Shown: positions 5,284 to 14,712 of the stretch, one piece after another
Layout: every line of letters starts with the position of its first letter
Numbering within the stretch: the first letter of the stretch is position 1
Assembly (NCBI GenBank): GCA_048937405.1
Contig: JBHLNF010000006.1
Span: forward strand, 128,001-192,000
Source of the DNA: Promethearchaeota archaeon
GTDB lineage: Archaea > Asgardarchaeota > Lokiarchaeia > Sigyniarchaeales > SOKP01
Length of the DNA stretch: 64,000 nt
Reading direction: 5' to 3'
Translations under genes and position numbers: made by a program
Notes under the pieces: model-generated
Told to the model about the DNA's origin: nothing
What the model saw: the letters and a program-made list of their open reading frames with translations, nothing else
The model's database searches: none

Positions 5284-7320
5284 TTATATCTGGTAAGGAG
5301 CTAATGATTCAATCTTTTTCCAAATAAGCTCAATAGAATCAATATATTCTTCTTTATACTCGAGCTCAGTATTACAAATTCCTTTTATTTCTTCGATAAT
5401 TTGTCTATCTCGATAATATTTAAGATCAATTGCTCGAGCTGGACATGATGATATACAAACTCCACACCCTTTGCATTTTAATTCATCTACTTCCGCAATA
5501 TTCTTTCCATTGACTTTTATAGCCTTATAATTACATAACTTTTCACATCTACCGCATCCAACACAGAGATCCTCGTCAATTTCAGCAATTATTAATTCTT
5601 GAGTTATTGTATCTTTAGAGAGTAAAGTTGATGCTTTGCTTGCAGCAGCTAAAGCAGTTGATACTGAATAAGGGATGTTTTTAGGTCCAACAGCACAACC
5701 ACATATATAGATTCCTAGGTTTTTAGTTTCTTGGGGTTTTAAACAACCATGAAATTCAGTTAAAAATCCATTTATATCTTTAGCCACATTTAAAGTTTCA
5801 ATTAATTTGGCTGATGATTTAGAAGGAACCATTCCTGTAGATAATACTATTAAATCAGCTTCCATATTAATGAAATCATTTGTTAAAGTGGAAGAAGCAG
5901 TAACTTTTATTTTCTTAGTGTTTTGATCCTCTCTAATATCTCCTACTTTTCCTCGAATCATTATTATACCCGCTTCTCTCGCTCTTCTATAATATTCTTC
6001 ATTCCCTTTATCCCATGTTCGTATATCTATATAAAAAATAACTATTTCTATATCGGGATATTCACTTTTTAATAATTGAGCATTTTTAAGAGCAACATTA
6101 CAACATACTCCTGAACAGTAGTTATTTCCCTTTAAAGATCTTGAACCTACACATTGAATCATAACAACAGTTTTAGGGATTTTTCCATCAGAAATTCTAT
6201 AAACATGACCTCCTGTTGGTCCAACAGGACTTAATATGCGTTCTAATTCTATTTGAGTAATAACATCAGGATAAATACCATATTGATATTCATTAGTTTC
6301 TATAATTGGATATTCATCCCATCCTGTAGCAATAATTACCGCACCGACCTTTACATCTATATATTCTGTCTCTTGTTCTAAACTAATGGCTCCAGCAGGG
6401 CAAATTCTCTGACAATTTTTACATTCTATGCATGCTTGTTTATCAATTAAGGCAATTTTAGGGACAGCTTGAGGAAAAGGAATGTAAATTGCACCTCGCT
6501 CACCAATACCCCTATCAAACTCACTAGGTACTTTTACTGGGCATTTAGTTGTACATAAACCACATCCAGTACATTTGCTTTCATCAACATATCGAGGATT
6601 TTTCTTTATTTTAACATTATAATCCCCAGGGATGCCATTAAATTCAACAATATCACTATACGTATATAAGTTGATGTTAGGATGTTTTGATGTATTAACC
6701 ATAATAGGGGCTAAAACTCATATAGCACAATCGTCTGTAGGATAAATTCGATCCAATTGTGCCATTTTTCCGCCAATTGTGGCTTCTTTTTCAACTAAAT
6801 GCACATTAATTCCCTGATTTGCTACATCCAACGCAGCATTCATTCCTGCAATACCCGCACCTATTACTAATACTGCCTTTTCTACTGGAATTCTTTTATA
6901 AGGTATAATCTCTAATTCTCTGGCACGATTTATCCCTGCTTGTATTAGTCTAATAGCTTTTTCAGTAGTATTTCGTTTATTTCCTGATTGAGTAAATGAA
7001 CATTGTTCACGGAGATTAACCATTTGCAAGAAATATGGGTTTAATCCTGCTTCAATTAATACATTTCGGTATGTGGATTCATGAATTTTTGGTGAACAAG
7101 CTGCAACAACAACACGATTCAAGTCTAAATCTAAAATGTCATTTTTAATAATATTTTGTCCTGGATCGCTACAAGTAAAATCATTTACTTTAGCAACAAT
7201 TACATTTGGAATTGCTTCAACATAGTCTCTAATAAGATCACAATCAATGCTATTGCTTATATTAACTCCTCATCTACAAATATATACTCCGATTCTTACT
7301 ATGGTCTGTAATTCAGACAT
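5284..7320 (-). CDS. hdrA: Selenocysteine-containing HdrA, 678 aa, U17 and U201 (joins the 6718..7122 and 5284..6702 ORFs)
   Basis: Single frame from ATG 7320; TGA at 7270-7272 (YICR-U-GVNI, cf. VCHCGINI) and 6718-6720 (DDCAI-U-VLAP, cf. DCSLCILAP) both align to conserved Cys of the paralogues in this window; downstream SECIS-like hairpin. Confidence 0.9.
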
Positions 7321-7500
7321 ATTATCAACCTTTTAAAATGTCACCAAATTCATTTCTTTATTAAAAATCAAAATTCTAATTTATTGAGAAAATTTACTTA
7401 AAAGTAATTATAATTTTTTCAAAGACTATTTTCCTATTATTTAGTCAGGTAAGAACAATTTAAGAGATTTGAAAAGAAAAATTTAAATTATTTTGACAAA

Positions 7501-7520
7501 TTTGATAGTCATTTATCAAA
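7501..7520. promoter_or_regulatory. Inverted repeat TTTGATA-N6-TATCAAA, candidate operator in the divergent hdrA/frhB promoter
   Basis: Perfect 7-bp arms; single instance in AT-rich DNA. Confidence 0.3.
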
Positions 7521-7752
7521 CAATTTTTTGGTTTTGATCTCTACTTGATCTGATTCCCAAACTATATTTATTATTTATATAATAAGATATAAGGTATTGG
7601 ATCATCTTATTTTATCAATATCGACAATTAGATAGATAAAATAGATCATATTTAAATATCTTGACAACAATATTAATCATGGTAAATAAAAGAATTATTA
7701 AAATTATCTTTAAGATTTTTAAAATTACAAAAAAAATTGGTGATATTAAAAA

Positions 7753-8871
7753 ATGAGTATAAAGAGTTTTAATGATTTAATTGAAGAGGTCCATAAACCT
7801 GGGATTTGCCAAGAATGTGGAGGATGTGTTAGTTTTTGTAATGCATTAGAATATGATGTGATTGGGTTTGTTAAATCTAATTCCCCTCCAGAATATATAA
7901 ACAAGGATAAGTGCCTCGGGTGTGGAATATGTTATATTATTTGTCCACAAACTCACGTTTTAGATGACGATCTCAATAACGAATATAAATTTTCAGATTA
8001 TATTAAAATGCCATTAGGATATGTCAATTCGCTTTACTCATGCCAAGCTACAGATAGTGAATTTTTGAAACATGGAACAGATGGCGGAGTTGTAAATTCA
8101 ATTATTAATTATTTAATTGAAAAAAAAATAATTGATGGAGCAATTGTGGCAAAAACAAAATTGCCTTTCTCAAGAGAAGCTACTATAGTTGAAAATAAAG
8201 AAGAATTAATTGAGGCTTCAGGTATAAAATTAGACATATCTCCACAATTAGATAGTGTTCAGAAATTTCATACATATACAAATTCTTTACCTAAATTAAA
8301 AACTCAAAAAGTTAGGAAATTAGCATTAGTAGGGACGCCATGTCAGATTTACACTATTAGATGTATGCAAAGTTTAGGTATTATTCCCTCTGAAAATATA
8401 GAAATTTGTTTAGGATTGTTTTGCTACGAGAATTTTTTCTTTGATAAGAGAAAGGTTGAGAAATTTGAGAAAGATTTTAATATAAAATTCAAAGATATTG
8501 AAAAAATAAACATTAAAGAAGATTTAATTGTTAATTTAAAGAATAATAAAATTATTCATATACCATTTAACAAACTAAAGGATTATATGCGTAAAGCTTG
8601 CTCTGTATGTAAAGATTTCACTAATATTTATGCCGATATTTCTTTTGGAGGATTAGGATCCCCCAAGAAATTTACAACTGTAATCACTCGTACTAAAAAG
8701 GGAGAAAATATTTTTAATAAAGTTTTAAATTCAGGGATTATCAAAAGTTTAAAATTAGATATAAATTCCAAAAATGAAATAAAGGAAAAAATTACCCAAT
8801 TTTCTCTCTCAAAATTAAAACGAACAGAACAAAGTTTGAATCATAAATTATCAACGCAAGACCATAATTAA
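7753..8871 (+). CDS. FrhB/FdhB/FpoF-family F420-binding subunit with N-terminal ferredoxin
   Basis: CQECGGC, CLGCGIC..CP, DGGVV, GTPCQ, GLFC, DISFG; paralogue of 4024..5148. Confidence 0.88.
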   Translation: MSIKSFNDLIEEVHKPGICQECGGCVSFCNALEYDVIGFVKSNSPPEYINKDKCLGCGICYIICPQTHVLDDDLNNEYKFSDYIKMPLGYVNSLYSCQATDSEFLKHGTDGGVVNSIINYLIEKKIIDGAIVAKTKLPFSREATIVENKEELIEASGIKLDISPQLDSVQKFHTYTNSLPKLKTQKVRKLALVGTPCQIYTIRCMQSLGIIPSENIEICLGLFCYENFFFDKRKVEKFEKDFNIKFKDIEKINIKEDLIVNLKNNKIIHIPFNKLKDYMRKACSVCKDFTNIYADISFGGLGSPKKFTTVITRTKKGENIFNKVLNSGIIKSLKLDINSKNEIKEKITQFSLSKLKRTEQSLNHKLSTQDHN

Positions 8872-8969: not shown

Positions 8970-11519
8970 ATGGATATTTATTCAATTTTATCTCATCCAT
9001 TTAGGAGGAAAATTTTATTTCTTTTAGATAAAGAAGGATATATCCCTTATACTGAATTAATGGAAAAACTTAATTTAGATACAACTGGACAATTAAATTT
9101 CCATCTTAAAAAGATTGGATCATTAATAGATAAAGACAATAAATCATATTTTCTTACAGAAGATGGTAAACGTGTTTTAAAAATTATAAATCTTAATAAA
9201 AGAATTTTATCGGGAGAATATATTGATGAGTATTTTGATTCAAAAGGAAGCGAAATAAGTCGGATTGGAGTAATTATTTGTAATTGCAATACAGAAATTT
9301 CAAATGTAATTGATATTAAAGCACTTGAAAATTATGTGAATAAATTAAAAAAAGTAGTCTCGGTAAAAATATTTGAAAATCTTTGTCAGCAAAAGAATTT
9401 CGAGAAAATTCAAAATTGGGTAAAAGATAATTTTATAAATAAAATAGTAATAGCTGCTTGTTCTCCCAAAACTCACCAAAATCTTTTTGAAAGAATTTTT
9501 GAAGATATTATTGATCATACAAATATAGAATTTGCTAACATTAGAGAACAATGTTGCTGGGTACATCAACCGCAAATAGATCAAAATTTCCCTTTACTTT
9601 CTCTAGAAAAAGCGAAATTATTAATTGAAGCAGCTGTAGAACGCGTAAATTTTCAAAAAAAATTAAAAGTAAAGAGAGTTGAAGTTGAGAAAAGTTGTGC
9701 TATTTTAGGTGGTGGAATTGCAGGCATAACTCTCGCTTTAAACTTAGCACGATCCGGAATAAAAGTATATCTTATTGAAAAATCACCAACATTGGGGGGT
9801 AAGGTAGCTAGATGGCACAAAATTCATAATATGGGCGATTGTTCAATATGTTTTATTTCTGAATTAATAGCGGAATTAGTTAATGAAAAGAATATAAAAA
9901 TATATACAAATACAGAAATAGAGAACGTATCAGGAGAAGTAGGGAATTTCACAATTAATATGATTAAGAAACCTCGGTATGTTGATGTAAAAAAATGTAC
10001 TGGATGTAAACAATGTATATCTGTTTGTAGTATAGAAAAACCAAATCAATATGAATTTGGGTTAAGCAATCGAAAAATAATATATATTCCATTTATACAT
10101 TCTTATCCTTATGCACCTTTAATTGATGAGGAAGATTTAAAAAATTGTCTTAATTGTAAGATTTGTGAACGTGCTTGCGTAAATAAAGCAATAGATTTAA
10201 GTCAGAAAGAAGAGAAAATTGAAATAAGAGTCGGTACTAAAGTTATCGCTATTGGATCTGATTTTTATAAAGATTTAAAAGAATATCATTATAATCCCAA
10301 AAAAAATATAATAACATCACCAGAATTTGAGCGCCTTTTAGCTTCTGATGGTTTAACTGAGGGAAAACTCAGAAAGATATCAGATAAAAGTCCCGTAAAT
10401 TCGATTTCAATAATTCAGGAAGTTGGTCCATCAAAATATCTAGCAGAGTTCTCTGAAAATTTAGCAGAAAAATATATTGAGGATGTTAAAATAAGAAATC
10501 CTCATTGTGAAGTAAATGTTTTCTATGATTTAAGTAAATTAAAGAATAGGGATGAAATTTTGTTAAGATCTACAAACCCTAGATTTATTTATGCCAATAA
10601 AATTAGTATTAAATCTACTAAGGATGTGAATTACGTTATTGCTGATAACATAGAATTTCAAAGCGATTTGATAGTTTTAAATATAAAATATATCCCCAAT
10701 GAAGATTTAAAAAATCTTAGACAATATATGGATTTTACACTAAATTTCAATGGATTTATGAGTGAAGACACGTTAGCATCGGGAATTTATGGTGTTGGAA
10801 CTATCTTTGGTCCTTTAAATTATAAATCCACAATTTCAACAGTTAATAATGTTGCTTTAAAAGTAATTTCATTACTTTCTAAAGAATATTTAATAGCAGA
10901 ATTTACTGGAATTGAAATAAATGAAAATAGATGTGGTTTATGCGGTTTATGTTTAAAAATATGTCCTTATAATGCCATCACAATAGAGGGAGATAAAATT
11001 ACCATAGATAAATTCAAATGTAAAGGTGGCGGTACATGTGCTAGTATCTGTCCTACCAATGCTATAGATCTAAACATAGATACTTCTGAGAAAATCTTGA
11101 GAACAATTAGAATTTTCTCAAAATTCAGATCAAGTCCAAAAATCATTGCCTTTTGTTGTGCTTCTTGTGGATATGCTGCTGCGGATGATGCAGGGCTTAA
11201 GAAAATTTCCTATACTCCAAATATTTTCATCATAAGAGTGCCCTGTACGGGTCGTATTGATACAAATTTTATTATTAAATCATTTGAACTCGGTTTCGAT
11301 GGAGTTATGATAATTGGTTGCAGACAAGATGCTTGTCGGTATATAGATGGAGTAAAAAAGATAGAAAACAAAATTAGACTATTAACAAATGTTATAGCTA
11401 CAAAGTATAAAGATCGAATAATCCTTGAACATTTGAATGCTGTTGAAGGAAATAAATTTGCTGAGATTGCCAATAAATTCTATAATAACCTATTGGAGGA
11501 GATTAAATATGAAACCTAG
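8970..11519 (+). CDS. ArsR-like winged-helix - degenerate HdrA - MvhD fusion protein
   Basis: N-term LSHPFRRKIL..YTELMEKL..TGQLNFHLKKI..YFLTEDG (wHTH); ICNC, AACSP, REQCCWVH, GGGIAG, ferredoxin motifs (HdrA); FCCASCGY, RVPCTGR, GCRQDACRY (MvhD). Confidence 0.85.
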   Translation: MDIYSILSHPFRRKILFLLDKEGYIPYTELMEKLNLDTTGQLNFHLKKIGSLIDKDNKSYFLTEDGKRVLKIINLNKRILSGEYIDEYFDSKGSEISRIGVIICNCNTEISNVIDIKALENYVNKLKKVVSVKIFENLCQQKNFEKIQNWVKDNFINKIVIAACSPKTHQNLFERIFEDIIDHTNIEFANIREQCCWVHQPQIDQNFPLLSLEKAKLLIEAAVERVNFQKKLKVKRVEVEKSCAILGGGIAGITLALNLARSGIKVYLIEKSPTLGGKVARWHKIHNMGDCSICFISELIAELVNEKNIKIYTNTEIENVSGEVGNFTINMIKKPRYVDVKKCTGCKQCISVCSIEKPNQYEFGLSNRKIIYIPFIHSYPYAPLIDEEDLKNCLNCKICERACVNKAIDLSQKEEKIEIRVGTKVIAIGSDFYKDLKEYHYNPKKNIITSPEFERLLASDGLTEGKLRKISDKSPVNSISIIQEVGPSKYLAEFSENLAEKYIEDVKIRNPHCEVNVFYDLSKLKNRDEILLRSTNPRFIYANKISIKSTKDVNYVIADNIEFQSDLIVLNIKYIPNEDLKNLRQYMDFTLNFNGFMSEDTLASGIYGVGTIFGPLNYKSTISTVNNVALKVISLLSKEYLIAEFTGIEINENRCGLCGLCLKICPYNAITIEGDKITIDKFKCKGGGTCASICPTNAIDLNIDTSEKILRTIRIFSKFRSSPKIIAFCCASCGYAAADDAGLKKISYTPNIFIIRVPCTGRIDTNFIIKSFELGFDGVMIIGCRQDACRYIDGVKKIENKIRLLTNVIATKYKDRIILEHLNAVEGNKFAEIANKFYNNLLEEIKYET

Positions 11520-12267
11520 ATTCAATATAATTTCTCTAACATCATGTACAGGATGCATATCAACTCTTATGTCTTTAGATATTTTTCCTCAATTTCTTGA
11601 AAGAACAAAAATAAATTATTTTCCATTTATTTTAGATGCAGACGATGTTGAAAATTGCGAAATTGCACTAGTAGAAGGATGTATTTCTGAAGAAACACAA
11701 ATATCTCTTATTAGAAAAATAAGAAAAAGTGCTAAAAAAGTAATTGCTTTAGGAACTTGTGCCTGCTTTGGTGGAGTTTTAAGCCTTTCTAATTCAAAAC
11801 AAGCAGAGCCTCTATCTAACCATATTGAAATTGATGGTATGATTCCTGGTTGTCCTCCTCCATCTAAATTTTTTGGAAATTGTTTAATCAACTTGGTTGG
11901 AAATAAAGATATAATATTATCCGAAAAGAATATGTGTGCAAATTGCCCAATAAGGGAAAATCTAGAAATTAATTCTAATATAAATATAACTAAAATAAAT
12001 CCTAATCCTGAAGAAATTAGAGTAGATGAAGAAAACTGTAATTGTTTTTTAAATAATGGTATTTTATGTTTAGGTCCAATAACTCGTGAAGGTTGCGAAC
12101 ATAAATGTATAAAAATGGGGCTTCCTTGCGAAGGATGTATGGGGCCTGTATCAAAAGATTTTACATCTAATGTTGTAAATTATTTGAGTTTAATAGAACT
12201 TTCTCAAGACTTAAAAAATTATACTGGAATTTTTTATCGATTTTCGAAACCAAAAATTAATAGGTAA
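11509..12267 (+). CDS. mvhG: [NiFe] hydrogenase small subunit, MvhG-like (group 3)
   Basis: SCTGC, VEG, GTCACFGG, IPGCPP, CANC, CLGPIT..GC...C......CEGC; ATG 11509 overlaps the end of the upstream gene. Confidence 0.85.
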   Translation: MKPRFNIISLTSCTGCISTLMSLDIFPQFLERTKINYFPFILDADDVENCEIALVEGCISEETQISLIRKIRKSAKKVIALGTCACFGGVLSLSNSKQAEPLSNHIEIDGMIPGCPPPSKFFGNCLINLVGNKDIILSEKNMCANCPIRENLEINSNINITKINPNPEEIRVDEENCNCFLNNGILCLGPITREGCEHKCIKMGLPCEGCMGPVSKDFTSNVVNYLSLIELSQDLKNYTGIFYRFSKPKINR

Positions 12268-12272
12268 AATTA

Positions 12273-13577
12273 ATGCTTAAAATTGTAAATGTTTGTACGC
12301 GTGTTGAAGGTCATGGAGAAGTTAAAATTATGCTTCAAAATGATGGAGTATCCTTAGCAAATTTTGAATTTCCAGTTTATCGGGGATTTGAAAAATTTCT
12401 AATTGGTAAAAAGCTGCTTGATATTCCTAAATTTGTATCTCGAATATGCGGTTTATGTTATGCTTCTCAAGCAATTGCAAGTTGCAAAACATTAGAAAAT
12501 ATTTACAATTTAGAAATTTCAGAACAAAGCATTAATTTAAGACGCCTTTTAATGGCTGCGGAATTAATAAAATCTCATTCTATGAATTTTTTCTTTCAAA
12601 CTATGCCAGATCTTTTAAAAATTTTTAAAATTACTCAAAAAACTTTATCTCCGTATGAATTAATCAAATTTAATCCTCAATTAACGTCAAATTTATATGA
12701 TTTAATTAAATTTGGAAGTGAAATAAATGAGTTATTTGGTGGTAGATCTGTTCACTTAATTTCAATTGTTCCTGGAGGCGTTATTTATTCTCCTTCTCGA
12801 AAATTAATTTCATTATCTCAAAAATATTTTCAAAAAGCTTTAACCGTTATAGAATGGATCATAGAAGAATTTATCCAATTATTTGCTGATAAAACTCCTC
12901 CAAGAGAATTTAATTTACCGGATTTTATTTGTTTAGCACAAAATAATCATGGTATATATGATCGATATTCTGGCTCATTAAGAATTAAAGAAGAAGACAA
13001 GAACTTAATAGAATTTGAAGCCCAAAACTTCTCTACCTATTTTAGTAAAGAGATAAATCTCCGAGGCATTGATTTTTATTTCGAAAATAAAAAGAATTTA
13101 ATAGTTGGACCTTTCTCACGTTATAATCTTATTGAGAATTATGAATTGGATCAAATCGATACTTATATTGAATACTTTAATAAATCTTGGAAAAAGAATT
13201 TATTATTCATTAATTTTTTGAGATTACTAGAAATATATATTGAATCTTATAAAAGTATACAAATATTGGAGGAACCTTCATTAAACGTTAAGAAAAATCT
13301 TCCTCCTCTAGATGCTATTAAGAAGAATGAGGGTATTGGTGTTATTGAAGCCCCAAGAGGAACTTTAATACATAATTATCATTTAAATAAAAACAATAGT
13401 ATTGATAGAATAAAACTATTTATTGCTACTGAGTTTAATATTCCACTTCTTGATCAAATGATAACTAAATATGCTCAAGAACTATTCGACAAAACTGGTG
13501 ATATTAAATTAGTAGAAAAAGAAGTACAGATGATAATTAGAACCTTTGATCCTTGTATTTCATGTGCTACGCATTAA
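12273..13577 (+). CDS. mvhA: [NiFe] hydrogenase large subunit, MvhA-like (group 3), without C-terminal extension
   Basis: TRVEGH, RGFE, RICGLC (L1), EAPRG, DPCISCATH-stop (L2). Confidence 0.9.
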   Translation: MLKIVNVCTRVEGHGEVKIMLQNDGVSLANFEFPVYRGFEKFLIGKKLLDIPKFVSRICGLCYASQAIASCKTLENIYNLEISEQSINLRRLLMAAELIKSHSMNFFFQTMPDLLKIFKITQKTLSPYELIKFNPQLTSNLYDLIKFGSEINELFGGRSVHLISIVPGGVIYSPSRKLISLSQKYFQKALTVIEWIIEEFIQLFADKTPPREFNLPDFICLAQNNHGIYDRYSGSLRIKEEDKNLIEFEAQNFSTYFSKEINLRGIDFYFENKKNLIVGPFSRYNLIENYELDQIDTYIEYFNKSWKKNLLFINFLRLLEIYIESYKSIQILEEPSLNVKKNLPPLDAIKKNEGIGVIEAPRGTLIHNYHLNKNNSIDRIKLFIATEFNIPLLDQMITKYAQELFDKTGDIKLVEKEVQMIIRTFDPCISCATH

Positions 13578-13656: not shown

Positions 13657-14712
13657 ATGAAGATTAAAAATTTTGCTGACAAAATAAAGATTGTCATCAT
13701 AATAGTGCTTTTAATTTTTTCATCTATACTGAATTACATATTCCAAATAGTTTTAGAAATTAACATCTTTTTTTCACATTTTTTCTATATTCCAACAATT
13801 CTAGCTTGTTTCTGGTGGAAAAGGTATGGCTTATTTATACCTATATATTTAGCAGTCTCACTAATTTTATTTCCCTTTTTTTTTGGTATAATTATTGATT
13901 ATTTACATAATTTAGAACAAATCCTTCGAGCTATAATGATTATAATTGTTGGTATTATAGTTAGTGTTCTAAGTGAACATATTTCAAAAACTAAAGAATT
14001 TACAAAAGCTTATAGTAATATTCTTTTTTATAGAGATTTAATTAGCCATGATATGAACAACATCTTTCAGAATATTTTGTCATCTACAGAACTACATTCA
14101 ATTATAAAAAAAAATAGCAATATTGTTGATGAGCAAGATGAATTAATTAAAATAATAAGAGATCAATGTTTTAGAGGAGTTAGATTAACTTTAAATGTAC
14201 AAAATCTAACAAAATTAGAAGATTCTCAATTTTATTTAAAAAAAGTAAATTTAAAAGAAATACTCAATGAATCGATTAAAAATATTAAAAATTATTACCA
14301 GGATAAAGAAATAACATTTGATATAGAGGCACCAAATAAAATACTTTGGATTAAAGCAAATGAATTATTATCTGAAATATTCATTAACTTATTTATTAAT
14401 TCTGTGAAATATAATGAAAGCCCTATCGTAGAAATCAAGATAAAGGTCTCGAATGAAAAAATTAATAGTCTAGATTATTTAAAAATTGAAGTTAAGGATA
14501 ATGGAATTGGAATTCCTGATGAACGTAAAAAAATTATATTTGAGAGAAGAAATAAGAAAAATAAGTATTCTAAAGGAATGGGAATTGGACTATCAATTGT
14601 TAAAGGAATCCTTAATAAATATAATGGAAAAATTTGGGTTGAAGATAAAGTATTTGGAGATTATTCAAAAGGGAGTAATTTCATTATATTAATTCCTCAA
14701 GCTTTTGACTAA
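13657..14712 (+). CDS. Membrane sensor histidine kinase
   Basis: ~4 TM N-terminus, H-box SHDMNN, NLFINSVKY, DNGIGI, GMGIGL. Confidence 0.9.
   Translation: MKIKNFADKIKIVIIIVLLIFSSILNYIFQIVLEINIFFSHFFYIPTILACFWWKRYGLFIPIYLAVSLILFPFFFGIIIDYLHNLEQILRAIMIIIVGIIVSVLSEHISKTKEFTKAYSNILFYRDLISHDMNNIFQNILSSTELHSIIKKNSNIVDEQDELIKIIRDQCFRGVRLTLNVQNLTKLEDSQFYLKKVNLKEILNESIKNIKNYYQDKEITFDIEAPNKILWIKANELLSEIFINLFINSVKYNESPIVEIKIKVSNEKINSLDYLKIEVKDNGIGIPDERKKIIFERRNKKNKYSKGMGIGLSIVKGILNKYNGKIWVEDKVFGDYSKGSNFIILIPQAFD

Follow-up and report, generated by a model that had tools for sequence, protein, structure and literature searches.

Three described systems come close to the locus studied here. In MvhAGD-HdrABC and VhuAGD (structures 5ODC and 9SW2), the [NiFe]-hydrogenase large subunit has a His at the L1 position and a C-terminal tail of 24-28 amino acids (aa), and genome-based metabolic reconstructions have described Asgard 'group 3c' enzymes as Mvh-Hdr-like, bifurcating and working with HdrBC (PMC11291895). 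In the H2 sensors of group 2b (HoxBC/HupUV of Cupriavidus necator and relatives), the large subunit HoxC reads RVCGICSVSQ, with Gln at the same L1 position. Such sensors apart, the L1 His is treated as conserved in all [NiFe] hydrogenases (PMC5665086). Naturally tail-less enzymes are found in groups 2b, 2d, 4c, 4e and 4g and are matured by the normal Hyp machinery (PMC7294309). The third system is HdrA2, a type Ia HdrA with a C-terminal MvhD, which belongs to the F420H2-dependent HdrA2B2C2 of Methanosarcina (PMC12054007, PMC5296606). Here we analysed a stretch of 64,000 nt from a Promethearchaeota archaeon (Lokiarchaeia, Sigyniarchaeales; assembly GCA_048937405.1, contig JBHLNF010000006.1, positions 128,001 to 192,000), called the window below. 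It encodes a [NiFe] large subunit, P0001, which has Gln at the L1 position and no tail and is accompanied by an MvhG-like small subunit and by an HdrA-MvhD fusion with an N-terminal winged helix-turn-helix (wHTH) domain. The comparisons below lead us, with moderate confidence, to regard P0001 as a distinct Asgard group 3 hydrogenase that is probably catalytic and acts within a self-regulating 'trigger-enzyme' complex.

A complete catalytic set with Gln66 and no C-terminal tail

P0001 passes the Pfam gathering score for PF00374 (90.1 bits, cut-off 25.8). Its 120 best homologues (51-95% identity, all Asgard by source name) were collected, and the 118 full-length ones were aligned; fractions of 118 refer to this alignment. 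The gene and the residues discussed are the following.

12273-13577, + strand: [NiFe]-hydrogenase large subunit P0001, 434 aa (PF00374, E=2e-25)
12453-12455, + strand: Leu61 (RICG-L-C), from alignment with HoxG and HoxC; Leu in 117/118
12468-12470, + strand: Gln66, codon CAA; other non-sensor [NiFe] hydrogenases have His at this L1 position; Gln in 118/118
12597-12599, + strand: Gln109 (NFFF-Q), from alignment with HoxG and HoxC; Gln in 111/118, His in 7
13575-13577, + strand: TAA stop immediately 3' of His434, leaving no protease-cleaved tail (DNA and translation)

The catalytic set of P0001 is complete. RVEGH Glu12, Cys59, Cys62, Cys428, Cys431, PRG Arg362 and His434 are all present, and they are invariant in the 118 homologues. 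L1 spans residues 57-66 (RICGLCYASQ, encoded by cga ata tgc ggt tta tgt tat gct tct caa), and the open reading frame (ORF) ends in gat cct tgt att tca tgt gct acg cat TAA, that is, in DPCISCATH followed by the stop. The original prediction, made from a reading of this DNA by itself, had pointed to Gln66 in L1, to the end straight after DPCISCATH and to the intact Ni-binding Cys, RVEGH Glu and PRG Arg, and all of these were borne out. It had also described the HFYxL region as altered. The region does read NFFFQ, and at the level of the clade the change is that of Leu to Gln109, Asn105 being a minority residue (40/118; His in 74).

Among solved chains, the A. mobile NiFe large subunit 7t2r_D (E=4e-51) and MvhA 5odc_F and 9sw2_F come closest. 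In all three a His stands opposite Gln66, and the chain continues for ~24-25 residues beyond the final His. The module as a whole has its best solved matches in MvhA (E ~1e-50), MvhG, MvhD and HdrA, and shares with Mvh/Vhu the large-small-MvhD-HdrA subunit logic, the Ni-Fe ligands and the proton-transfer Glu and Arg. It differs from them in Gln66, in the tail-less end and in falling in a separate clade (see below).

Gln and the lack of a tail, which the original prediction had named as features of HoxC/HupV, do hold for these group 2b proteins (PMC5665086, PMC7294309). Like HoxC, P0001 ends at the His of DPCxxCxxH and is cytoplasmic; the two are only ~25% identical, over the N-terminal third. 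Two further positions, which we take to be those of the gas-channel gate, are bulkier than Val and Leu in both proteins. The first, Leu61, corresponds to Val in standard enzymes and to Ile62 in HoxC, and the second, Gln109, to the Leu of HFYHL in HoxG and to Phe in HoxC. Cys8 (VNV-C-TRVEGH; 12294-12296), four residues before the proton-transfer Glu, is also invariant in the 118 clade members. In other group 3 enzymes this position is Pro, Val or Leu.

Conservation and spread of the lineage

Gln was found at the L1 position in the 120 best homologues wherever L1 is present, and 120 of the 121 sequences of the top set, partials included, end at the terminal His or Tyr, a single one in Tyr. Since Gln66 is found throughout and the ends are alike, chance or a sequencing error can be dismissed. 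Gln66 and the tail-less end are thus traits of the lineage and not a peculiarity of one gene.

The distribution was followed in a sample of 301 Asgard genomes, each at least 80% complete. Homologues with at least 43% identity occur in ~62 of the 91 genomes of the window's GTDB family and in a few genomes of two other families, and more distant relatives (32-40% identity) in four further Asgard families. A large archaeal lineage (118 sequence clusters, about two-thirds of the sampled genomes in one Asgard family) breaks the L1-His rule, and it provides a natural second test case for the effect of His or Gln on Ni-Fe chemistry. The original prediction would lose ground if Gln and tail-less ends were common in ordinary Asgard enzymes. 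This is in part what was found: both are universal in the lineage and present in about two-thirds of the family, and ten relatives (81-99% complete) gave no match to PF00374, PF00346 (group 4) or PF02906 ([FeFe]) besides the Gln-type gene, their one detected hydrogenase.

Another family of the same order, including two single-contig genomes of 4.3-4.4 Mb, has no close homologue in this sample (best E 1e-19 to 1e-35). Published expression data of a cultured Lokiarchaeon were considered as evidence and set aside as not applicable for want of a close homologue in this family, the identity of the organism being unconfirmed. Transcription of hdrA and of a group 3c hydrogenase, which are among the most transcribed metabolic genes in Ataby- and Freyarchaeia (PMC11291895), is a lead only, the membership of these genes in the present clade being unconfirmed. 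A Gln-type, tail-less large subunit with 48% identity lies on a contig of a bacterial bin (locus L021, DATKTP010000041.1, labelled Candidatus Deferrimicrobium sp.). The label is likely a binning error, because all remaining close relatives are Asgard.

Placement in group 3 and order of trait gain

Trees were built from 155 rows, rooted on HoxC/HoxG of plasmid pHG1, and then, with more care, from 43 rows. In both trees P0001 is inside a supported clade of 36 representatives. This clade is distinct from a long-tailed clade with best matches to VhuA, which includes the source genome's own VhuA, and from a short-tailed or tail-less clade with best matches to the sulfhydrogenase ShyA/HydA. HoxC groups with HoxG as outgroup, and P0001 is placed among group 3 relatives. 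The NCBIfam scores of P0001 are poor for both ShyA (156 bits, cut-off 700) and VhuA (154 bits, cut-off 800). The separate clade and the equally poor scores make it a third group 3 lineage, strictly neither 3c nor 3b, nor 2b. It would be an Asgard-restricted lineage, sister to the MvhA/VhuA (3c-like) and sulfhydrogenase (3b-like) clades and not within them.

The hallmarks of the individual groups were also compared. As in group 3c, P0001 is encoded with MvhG, MvhD and HdrA, but clade and score, the cluster leading to HdrBC, the L1 His and the tail do not agree with this group. Group 3b is contradicted by the low ShyA score and by neighbours of the HdrA-MvhD and MvhG types instead of HydB/HydG-type subunits. 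As in group 2b, Gln is present and the tail absent, but neither a group 2 phylogeny nor a conserved PAS kinase and response regulator of the HoxJ/HoxA type was found.

From the base of the clade upward, the branching order is as follows.

First: P0142-type enzymes, L1 His, tail of 3-7 aa
Second: P0131, L1 His, no tail (terminal His absent)
Third: Frey- and Jordarchaeial enzymes, L1 His, tail of 7 aa
Fourth: P0123, L1 His, no tail
Fifth: Helarchaeial enzymes, L1 Gln, tail of 5-11 aa
Sixth: Sigynarchaeial-type enzymes, L1 Gln, tail of 5-7 aa
Seventh: core clade, L1 Gln, no tail

On the 43-row tree the replacement of His by Gln requires one change, whereas the presence or absence of a tail requires four and is homoplastic. 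His without a tail is also found in 19 of 113 more distant representatives, mostly 3b-like. Gln thus arose once, in ancestors still bearing tails of 5-11 aa, whereas loss of the tail recurred at least four times. Gln and tail loss are separable and were gained at different times, tail loss being commonplace.

The wHTH-HdrA-MvhD fusion and its electron path

Two partner genes precede that of P0001.

8970-11519, + strand: wHTH(DUF7347)-HdrA-MvhD fusion, 849 aa (domain matches and alignment)
11506-12267, + strand: MvhG-like small subunit, ~253 aa (PF01058, VhuG), with the Cys motifs of three Fe-S clusters aligning with 5odc_E

The ORF of the small subunit is listed from 11437, but its likely start is 11506; homologues have 242-254 aa and overlap the end of the fusion gene. 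Fusion (834-853 aa) and small subunit lie directly upstream of the large subunit at all 18 clade loci with enough upstream sequence, and these three genes form the conserved module. The fusion was also found beside His-bearing or tailed relatives, at loci L009 (Freyarchaeial), L024 (Jordarchaeial), L010 (P0123), L093 (P0131) and L094 (P0142). Because it adjoins His-bearing and tailed enzymes too, the fusion is older than both Gln and tail loss. A link between these two traits and the fusion, raised in the original prediction, is thus one-sided: every Gln-bearing, tail-less gene examined has the fusion, but so have His-bearing and tailed relatives. No mention of DUF7347 or of a wHTH-HdrA fusion was found in the literature searched.

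The best NCBIfam match of the fusion is that of HdrA2 (NF040770, E=1.5e-172). The two have the architecture of HdrA with a C-terminal MvhD in common, but the score remains below the cut-off (576 bits against 1100), the N-terminal wHTH is additional and the cluster of the thioredoxin-reductase domain is lost. HdrA2 pairs with HdrB2C2, whereas the fusion pairs with a hydrogenase. Unlike in Mvh, HdrA is here fused to MvhD and to the wHTH, the cluster leading to HdrBC is lost and the operon is without HdrBC.

The electron path was assessed by an alignment of HdrA from 15 fusions with the two canonical HdrAs of the source genome and a solved HdrA. Input from MvhD takes place via the C-terminal ferredoxin domain, output to ferredoxin via the inserted ferredoxin domain and the N-terminal cluster, and the cluster of the thioredoxin-reductase domain is the exit from flavin adenine dinucleotide (FAD) to HdrBC (10.1101/2021.09.25.461819). 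The [4Fe-4S] motif of this last domain, CVGSR...YCSxxCC, has zero Cys in the window's fusion. The basal P0131- and P0142-type fusions still have the whole motif, whereas from the Frey-/Jordarchaeial level upward it is degenerate, so that loss of the exit to HdrBC predates Gln. Such a loss fits an operon in which neither HdrB nor HdrC is present. Kept in the fusions are the GGGIAG FAD motif, DCSIC, both CxxCxxCxxxC pairs of the inserted domain, the N-terminal Cys, the Cys of MvhD and the Glu of EFER.

A palindrome in the operon promoter

An 18-bp palindrome, TGACAA-N6-TTGTCA, has 18 matches with at most one mismatch in 275 kb from 20 clade loci. Seventeen of them could be positioned relative to the operon, and all 17 are in its promoter region, 70-266 bp before the fusion gene or, where an FrhB-like gene leads the operon, 90-260 bp before the latter. 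Usually two sites are present, ~157-168 bp apart. As background, the whole 4.47-Mb genome contains 8 matches, or 1.8 per Mb. In the window the region is organised as follows.

7494-7511, no strand: palindrome TGACAAATTTGATAGTCA, candidate operator, differing from TGACAA-N6-TTGTCA at 1 position and lying 259 bp ahead of the FrhB-like start
7662-7679, no strand: second, weaker palindrome with 2 mismatches, 168 bp after the first, as in the two-site spacing of other loci
7753-8871, + strand: FrhB-like flavo-iron-sulfur protein (PF04432/PF04422), leading the operon in the window's sub-lineage only

Exact orthologous palindromes occur in L005 and L013 at the same offset as that at 7494-7511. Site positions elsewhere are 3196/3364 in L005, 1216/1383 in L013, 3467/3624 in L009, 2465/2623 in L024 and 2599/2655 in L094, and the palindrome is thus also present at His-type loci (L009, L024 and L094, the last with two exact copies). 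We propose it as a new candidate operator of the fused wHTH and as a clade-wide mark of the operon promoter.

The model of the wHTH has a predicted local distance difference test (pLDDT) value of 88, and its best structural matches are dimeric DNA-binding regulators of the ArsR/HxlR type (YodB, QsrR, CadC, BigR, HlyU, NolR and SqrR; TM-scores 0.5-0.73). As all E-values are >1e-3, we draw no more from this search than that wHTH regulators head its matches. TTGQLNFHLKK, the putative recognition helix, ranks with the best-conserved parts of the domain.

None of the eight genome-wide matches of the palindrome is at Vhu or Hyp genes, and the proposal of a regulon was dropped for this reason. A looser palindrome, TGACAAAATAAAGATTGTCA (8-bp spacer), is located at 13677-13696, 100 bp past the stop of the large subunit and within the first codons of a histidine kinase gene; no counterpart was seen in L014.

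Possible roles of the complex

In the trigger-enzyme reading, the Ni-Fe site would be a normal one that splits or forms H2. Electrons would pass from the three small-subunit clusters to the [2Fe-2S] cluster of MvhD, to the C-terminal ferredoxin domain of HdrA and to FAD, and from there through the inserted-ferredoxin and N-terminal clusters to ferredoxin. A second redox partner, if any, would be expected at or near the flavin, because the HdrBC branch is lost. A probable effect of Gln66, Leu61/Gln109 and the missing tail is a tuning of the active site and of gas access, and without the tail, maturation would probably not depend on the endopeptidase. The N-terminal ArsR-like wHTH probably binds TGACAA-N6-TTGTCA in the operon promoter, which would make the complex a self-regulating trigger enzyme. 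Trigger enzymes of the PutA type are flavoenzymes fused to a DNA-binding domain that autoregulate their own operon. The analogy lies in a redox flavoprotein, an N-terminal DNA-binding fold and a palindrome in its own promoter, but folds and chemistry are unrelated.

A regulatory role of the whole complex gains support from the conserved promoter palindrome. This regulatory layer predates Gln and tail loss. Gln66, Leu61/Gln109 and the lack of a tail are fixed traits of the lineage, gained step by step, and alone are no signature of sensing; Gln, tail loss and regulatory coupling are separable. With the exit to HdrBC lost and HdrA joined to a wHTH with a candidate operator, this lineage may depart from both the electron flow and the regulation presumed in H2-syntrophy models.

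Several points weigh against this reading. The lineage is known from sequence alone. Gln66, the bulky residues at both putative gate positions, the missing tail, the loss of the HdrBC exit and the DNA-binding domain would jointly suit a low-turnover sensor. The wHTH and the palindrome are paired by co-occurrence only, and another regulator could bind the palindrome. The genomes in which the Gln-type enzyme is the sole hydrogenase are metagenome bins, and further hydrogenases could be unbinned. Finally, the window's fusion reads CKGGGTC (residues ~684-690; 10980-11010), one Cys of the C-terminal ferredoxin domain on the input path being gone. The other 14 fusions of the alignment and the two canonical HdrAs have CKGCGxC. 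The loss is peculiar to this genome and may be genuine or stem from a faulty assembly.

The alternative that survives best is a dedicated H2 sensor, which we consider possible but doubtful. Turnover would be low, and the hydrogenase would serve solely to set how reduced the flavin and clusters of HdrA are, which in turn would switch the DNA binding of the fused wHTH. Gln and the lack of a tail would be convergent with group 2b. In the window's sub-lineage there may also be cross-talk with the adjacent histidine kinase. An H2-reduced HdrA-MvhD flavin that toggles the ArsR-like wHTH on and off TGACAA-N6-TTGTCA operators would be the first archaeal H2 sensor, a proposal we hold to be unlikely. 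If true, H2 would be sensed by a one-component transcription factor that arose convergently with the bacterial group 2b system HoxBC-HoxJ-HoxA, and this in an archaeal lineage on which hydrogen-syntrophy models of eukaryote origin centre.

Gln66 and the tail-less end, as in HoxC (PMC5665086, PMC7294309), speak for a sensor, but the Gln of the regulatory hydrogenase 'seems not to be involved in H2 sensing' (PMC5665086), and ordinary 3b-like enzymes have often lost the tail. Loss of the HdrBC exit cluster, together with the absence of HdrBC from the operon, would also suit a sensor, yet the full multi-cluster route to the ferredoxin side is maintained under selection. The bulkier Leu61 and Gln109, at what we take to be both gate positions, point in the same direction as the lost exit. 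So do the conserved ArsR-like wHTH and promoter palindrome, but these also accompany His-bearing, tailed enzymes and do not track the 'sensor' residues. A canonical selenocysteine VhuGAU-HdrCB in the same genome would be a potential regulatory target; however, the palindrome is absent from the Vhu and Hyp genes, and in ten genomes the presumed sensor would be the only hydrogenase detected.

A histidine kinase was considered as a sensor partner.

13657-14712, + strand: membrane histidine kinase (HATPase_c, membrane N-terminus), a lineage-specific neighbour

Its position directly downstream of the large subunit, shared only by an orthologue in L014, favours the sensor; in L013 a paralogue is found ~3 kb further on. 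The partner of HoxBC is a PAS histidine kinase, whereas that of P0001 is the flavo-iron-sulfur HdrA-MvhD fusion, and the domain search of 13657-14712 returned HATPase_c alone and no PAS domain. As it is present at 2-3 of ~19 loci and lacks PAS, the kinase was dropped as general evidence. The original prediction of a convergently evolved sensory hydrogenase stands in one part. The resemblance to HoxC would be convergent, since the tree does not make P0001 a group 2 enzyme; the step from resemblance to sensor is weak, because Gln is seemingly uninvolved in sensing, tail loss is homoplastic and the kinase is not conserved. With the traits separable, the regulatory domain older, the ferredoxin path kept and the enzyme the sole hydrogenase detected in some genomes, the sensor claim is not supported by these comparisons.

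A purely catalytic complex, in which the wHTH is structural or protein-binding, another regulator acts on the palindrome and Gln and tail loss are neutral or tuning, seems improbable to us. The conserved redox path and the metabolic neighbours would agree with it, as would the fact that wHTH folds also have non-DNA roles and that all fold matches have E >1e-3. It accounts poorly for the conservation of the putative recognition helix, for a palindrome that accompanies the fusion gene across very divergent loci and for the finding that every top structural match is a DNA-binding regulator.

Other hydrogenases and maturation genes

The source genome encodes a second, canonical hydrogenase outside the window, on contig C26 at ~118.6-122.7 kb (L001). 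This locus contains VhuG, VhuA (L1 RICGICPIPH, truncated before L2), a small VhuU-like ORF, HdrC and HdrB. The VhuU-like ORF has an in-frame TGA (..YDC*LSCAAH), likely a selenocysteine codon, and a 21-aa tail. HypC and HypE/D/F are within ~35 kb of these Vhu genes; HypA, HypB and one HycI-like protease are elsewhere.

HypD was detected in 4 of the ten genomes in which the Gln-type enzyme is the sole hydrogenase. In five such genomes (G048, G281, G214, G072 and G226) neither HypD nor the HypF zinc finger was found; HypA is present in 4 of the 5 and a HycI-like ORF in 3 of 4 tested. In the family, HypD is present in 106 of 117 genomes and missing in 11, roughly the shortfall expected, by our estimate, from bins 80-100% complete. 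Because HypC, Vhu and HypE/D/F are linked within ~35 kb and HypA is retained, the joint absence of HypD and HypF probably reflects an unbinned linked contig, true loss being a remaining lead. A 'Hyp-less hydrogenase' was accordingly set aside. A degenerate relic or non-hydrogenase in which no Ni-Fe(CN)2CO site is assembled, for which the five Hyp-poor genomes could be cited, is very improbable given that no metal ligand or catalytic residue varies among the 118 sequences, that HypA is kept and that bin incompleteness and the Vhu/Hyp linkage on one contig account for what is missing.

Neighbouring genes and other observations

In L005, L006 and L013 the fusion gene is immediately preceded by the FrhB-like orthologue, which in L007 is close by but on the opposite strand; it was not found at the other 16 clade loci. 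Being beside the operon in 5 of 21 places, it was ruled out as a core subunit. Neighbours at other loci include glutamate dehydrogenase, a 340-aa protein without family match, a radical S-adenosylmethionine (SAM) protein, a protein with an Mpt_N (methylene-tetrahydromethanopterin dehydrogenase N-terminal) domain and Mrp-like antiporter subunits. The glutamate dehydrogenase, the Mpt_N protein and the antiporter subunits are metabolic neighbours and speak for a catalytic role.

On contig C26, outside the window, a 467-aa MvhG-like small-subunit ORF (MPVPVVFMQLSSCWGCHQSLL...) at 144403-145806 has no large subunit beside it and sits between an HdrCBA-MvhD block and HypE/D/F. Within the window, an HdrA paralogue at 5284-7320 (- strand) has two in-frame TGA codons, in the contexts ICR-U-GVNI and DCAI-U-VLAP. 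As judged by alignment, both are at Cys positions of other HdrAs, consistent with a selenoprotein.

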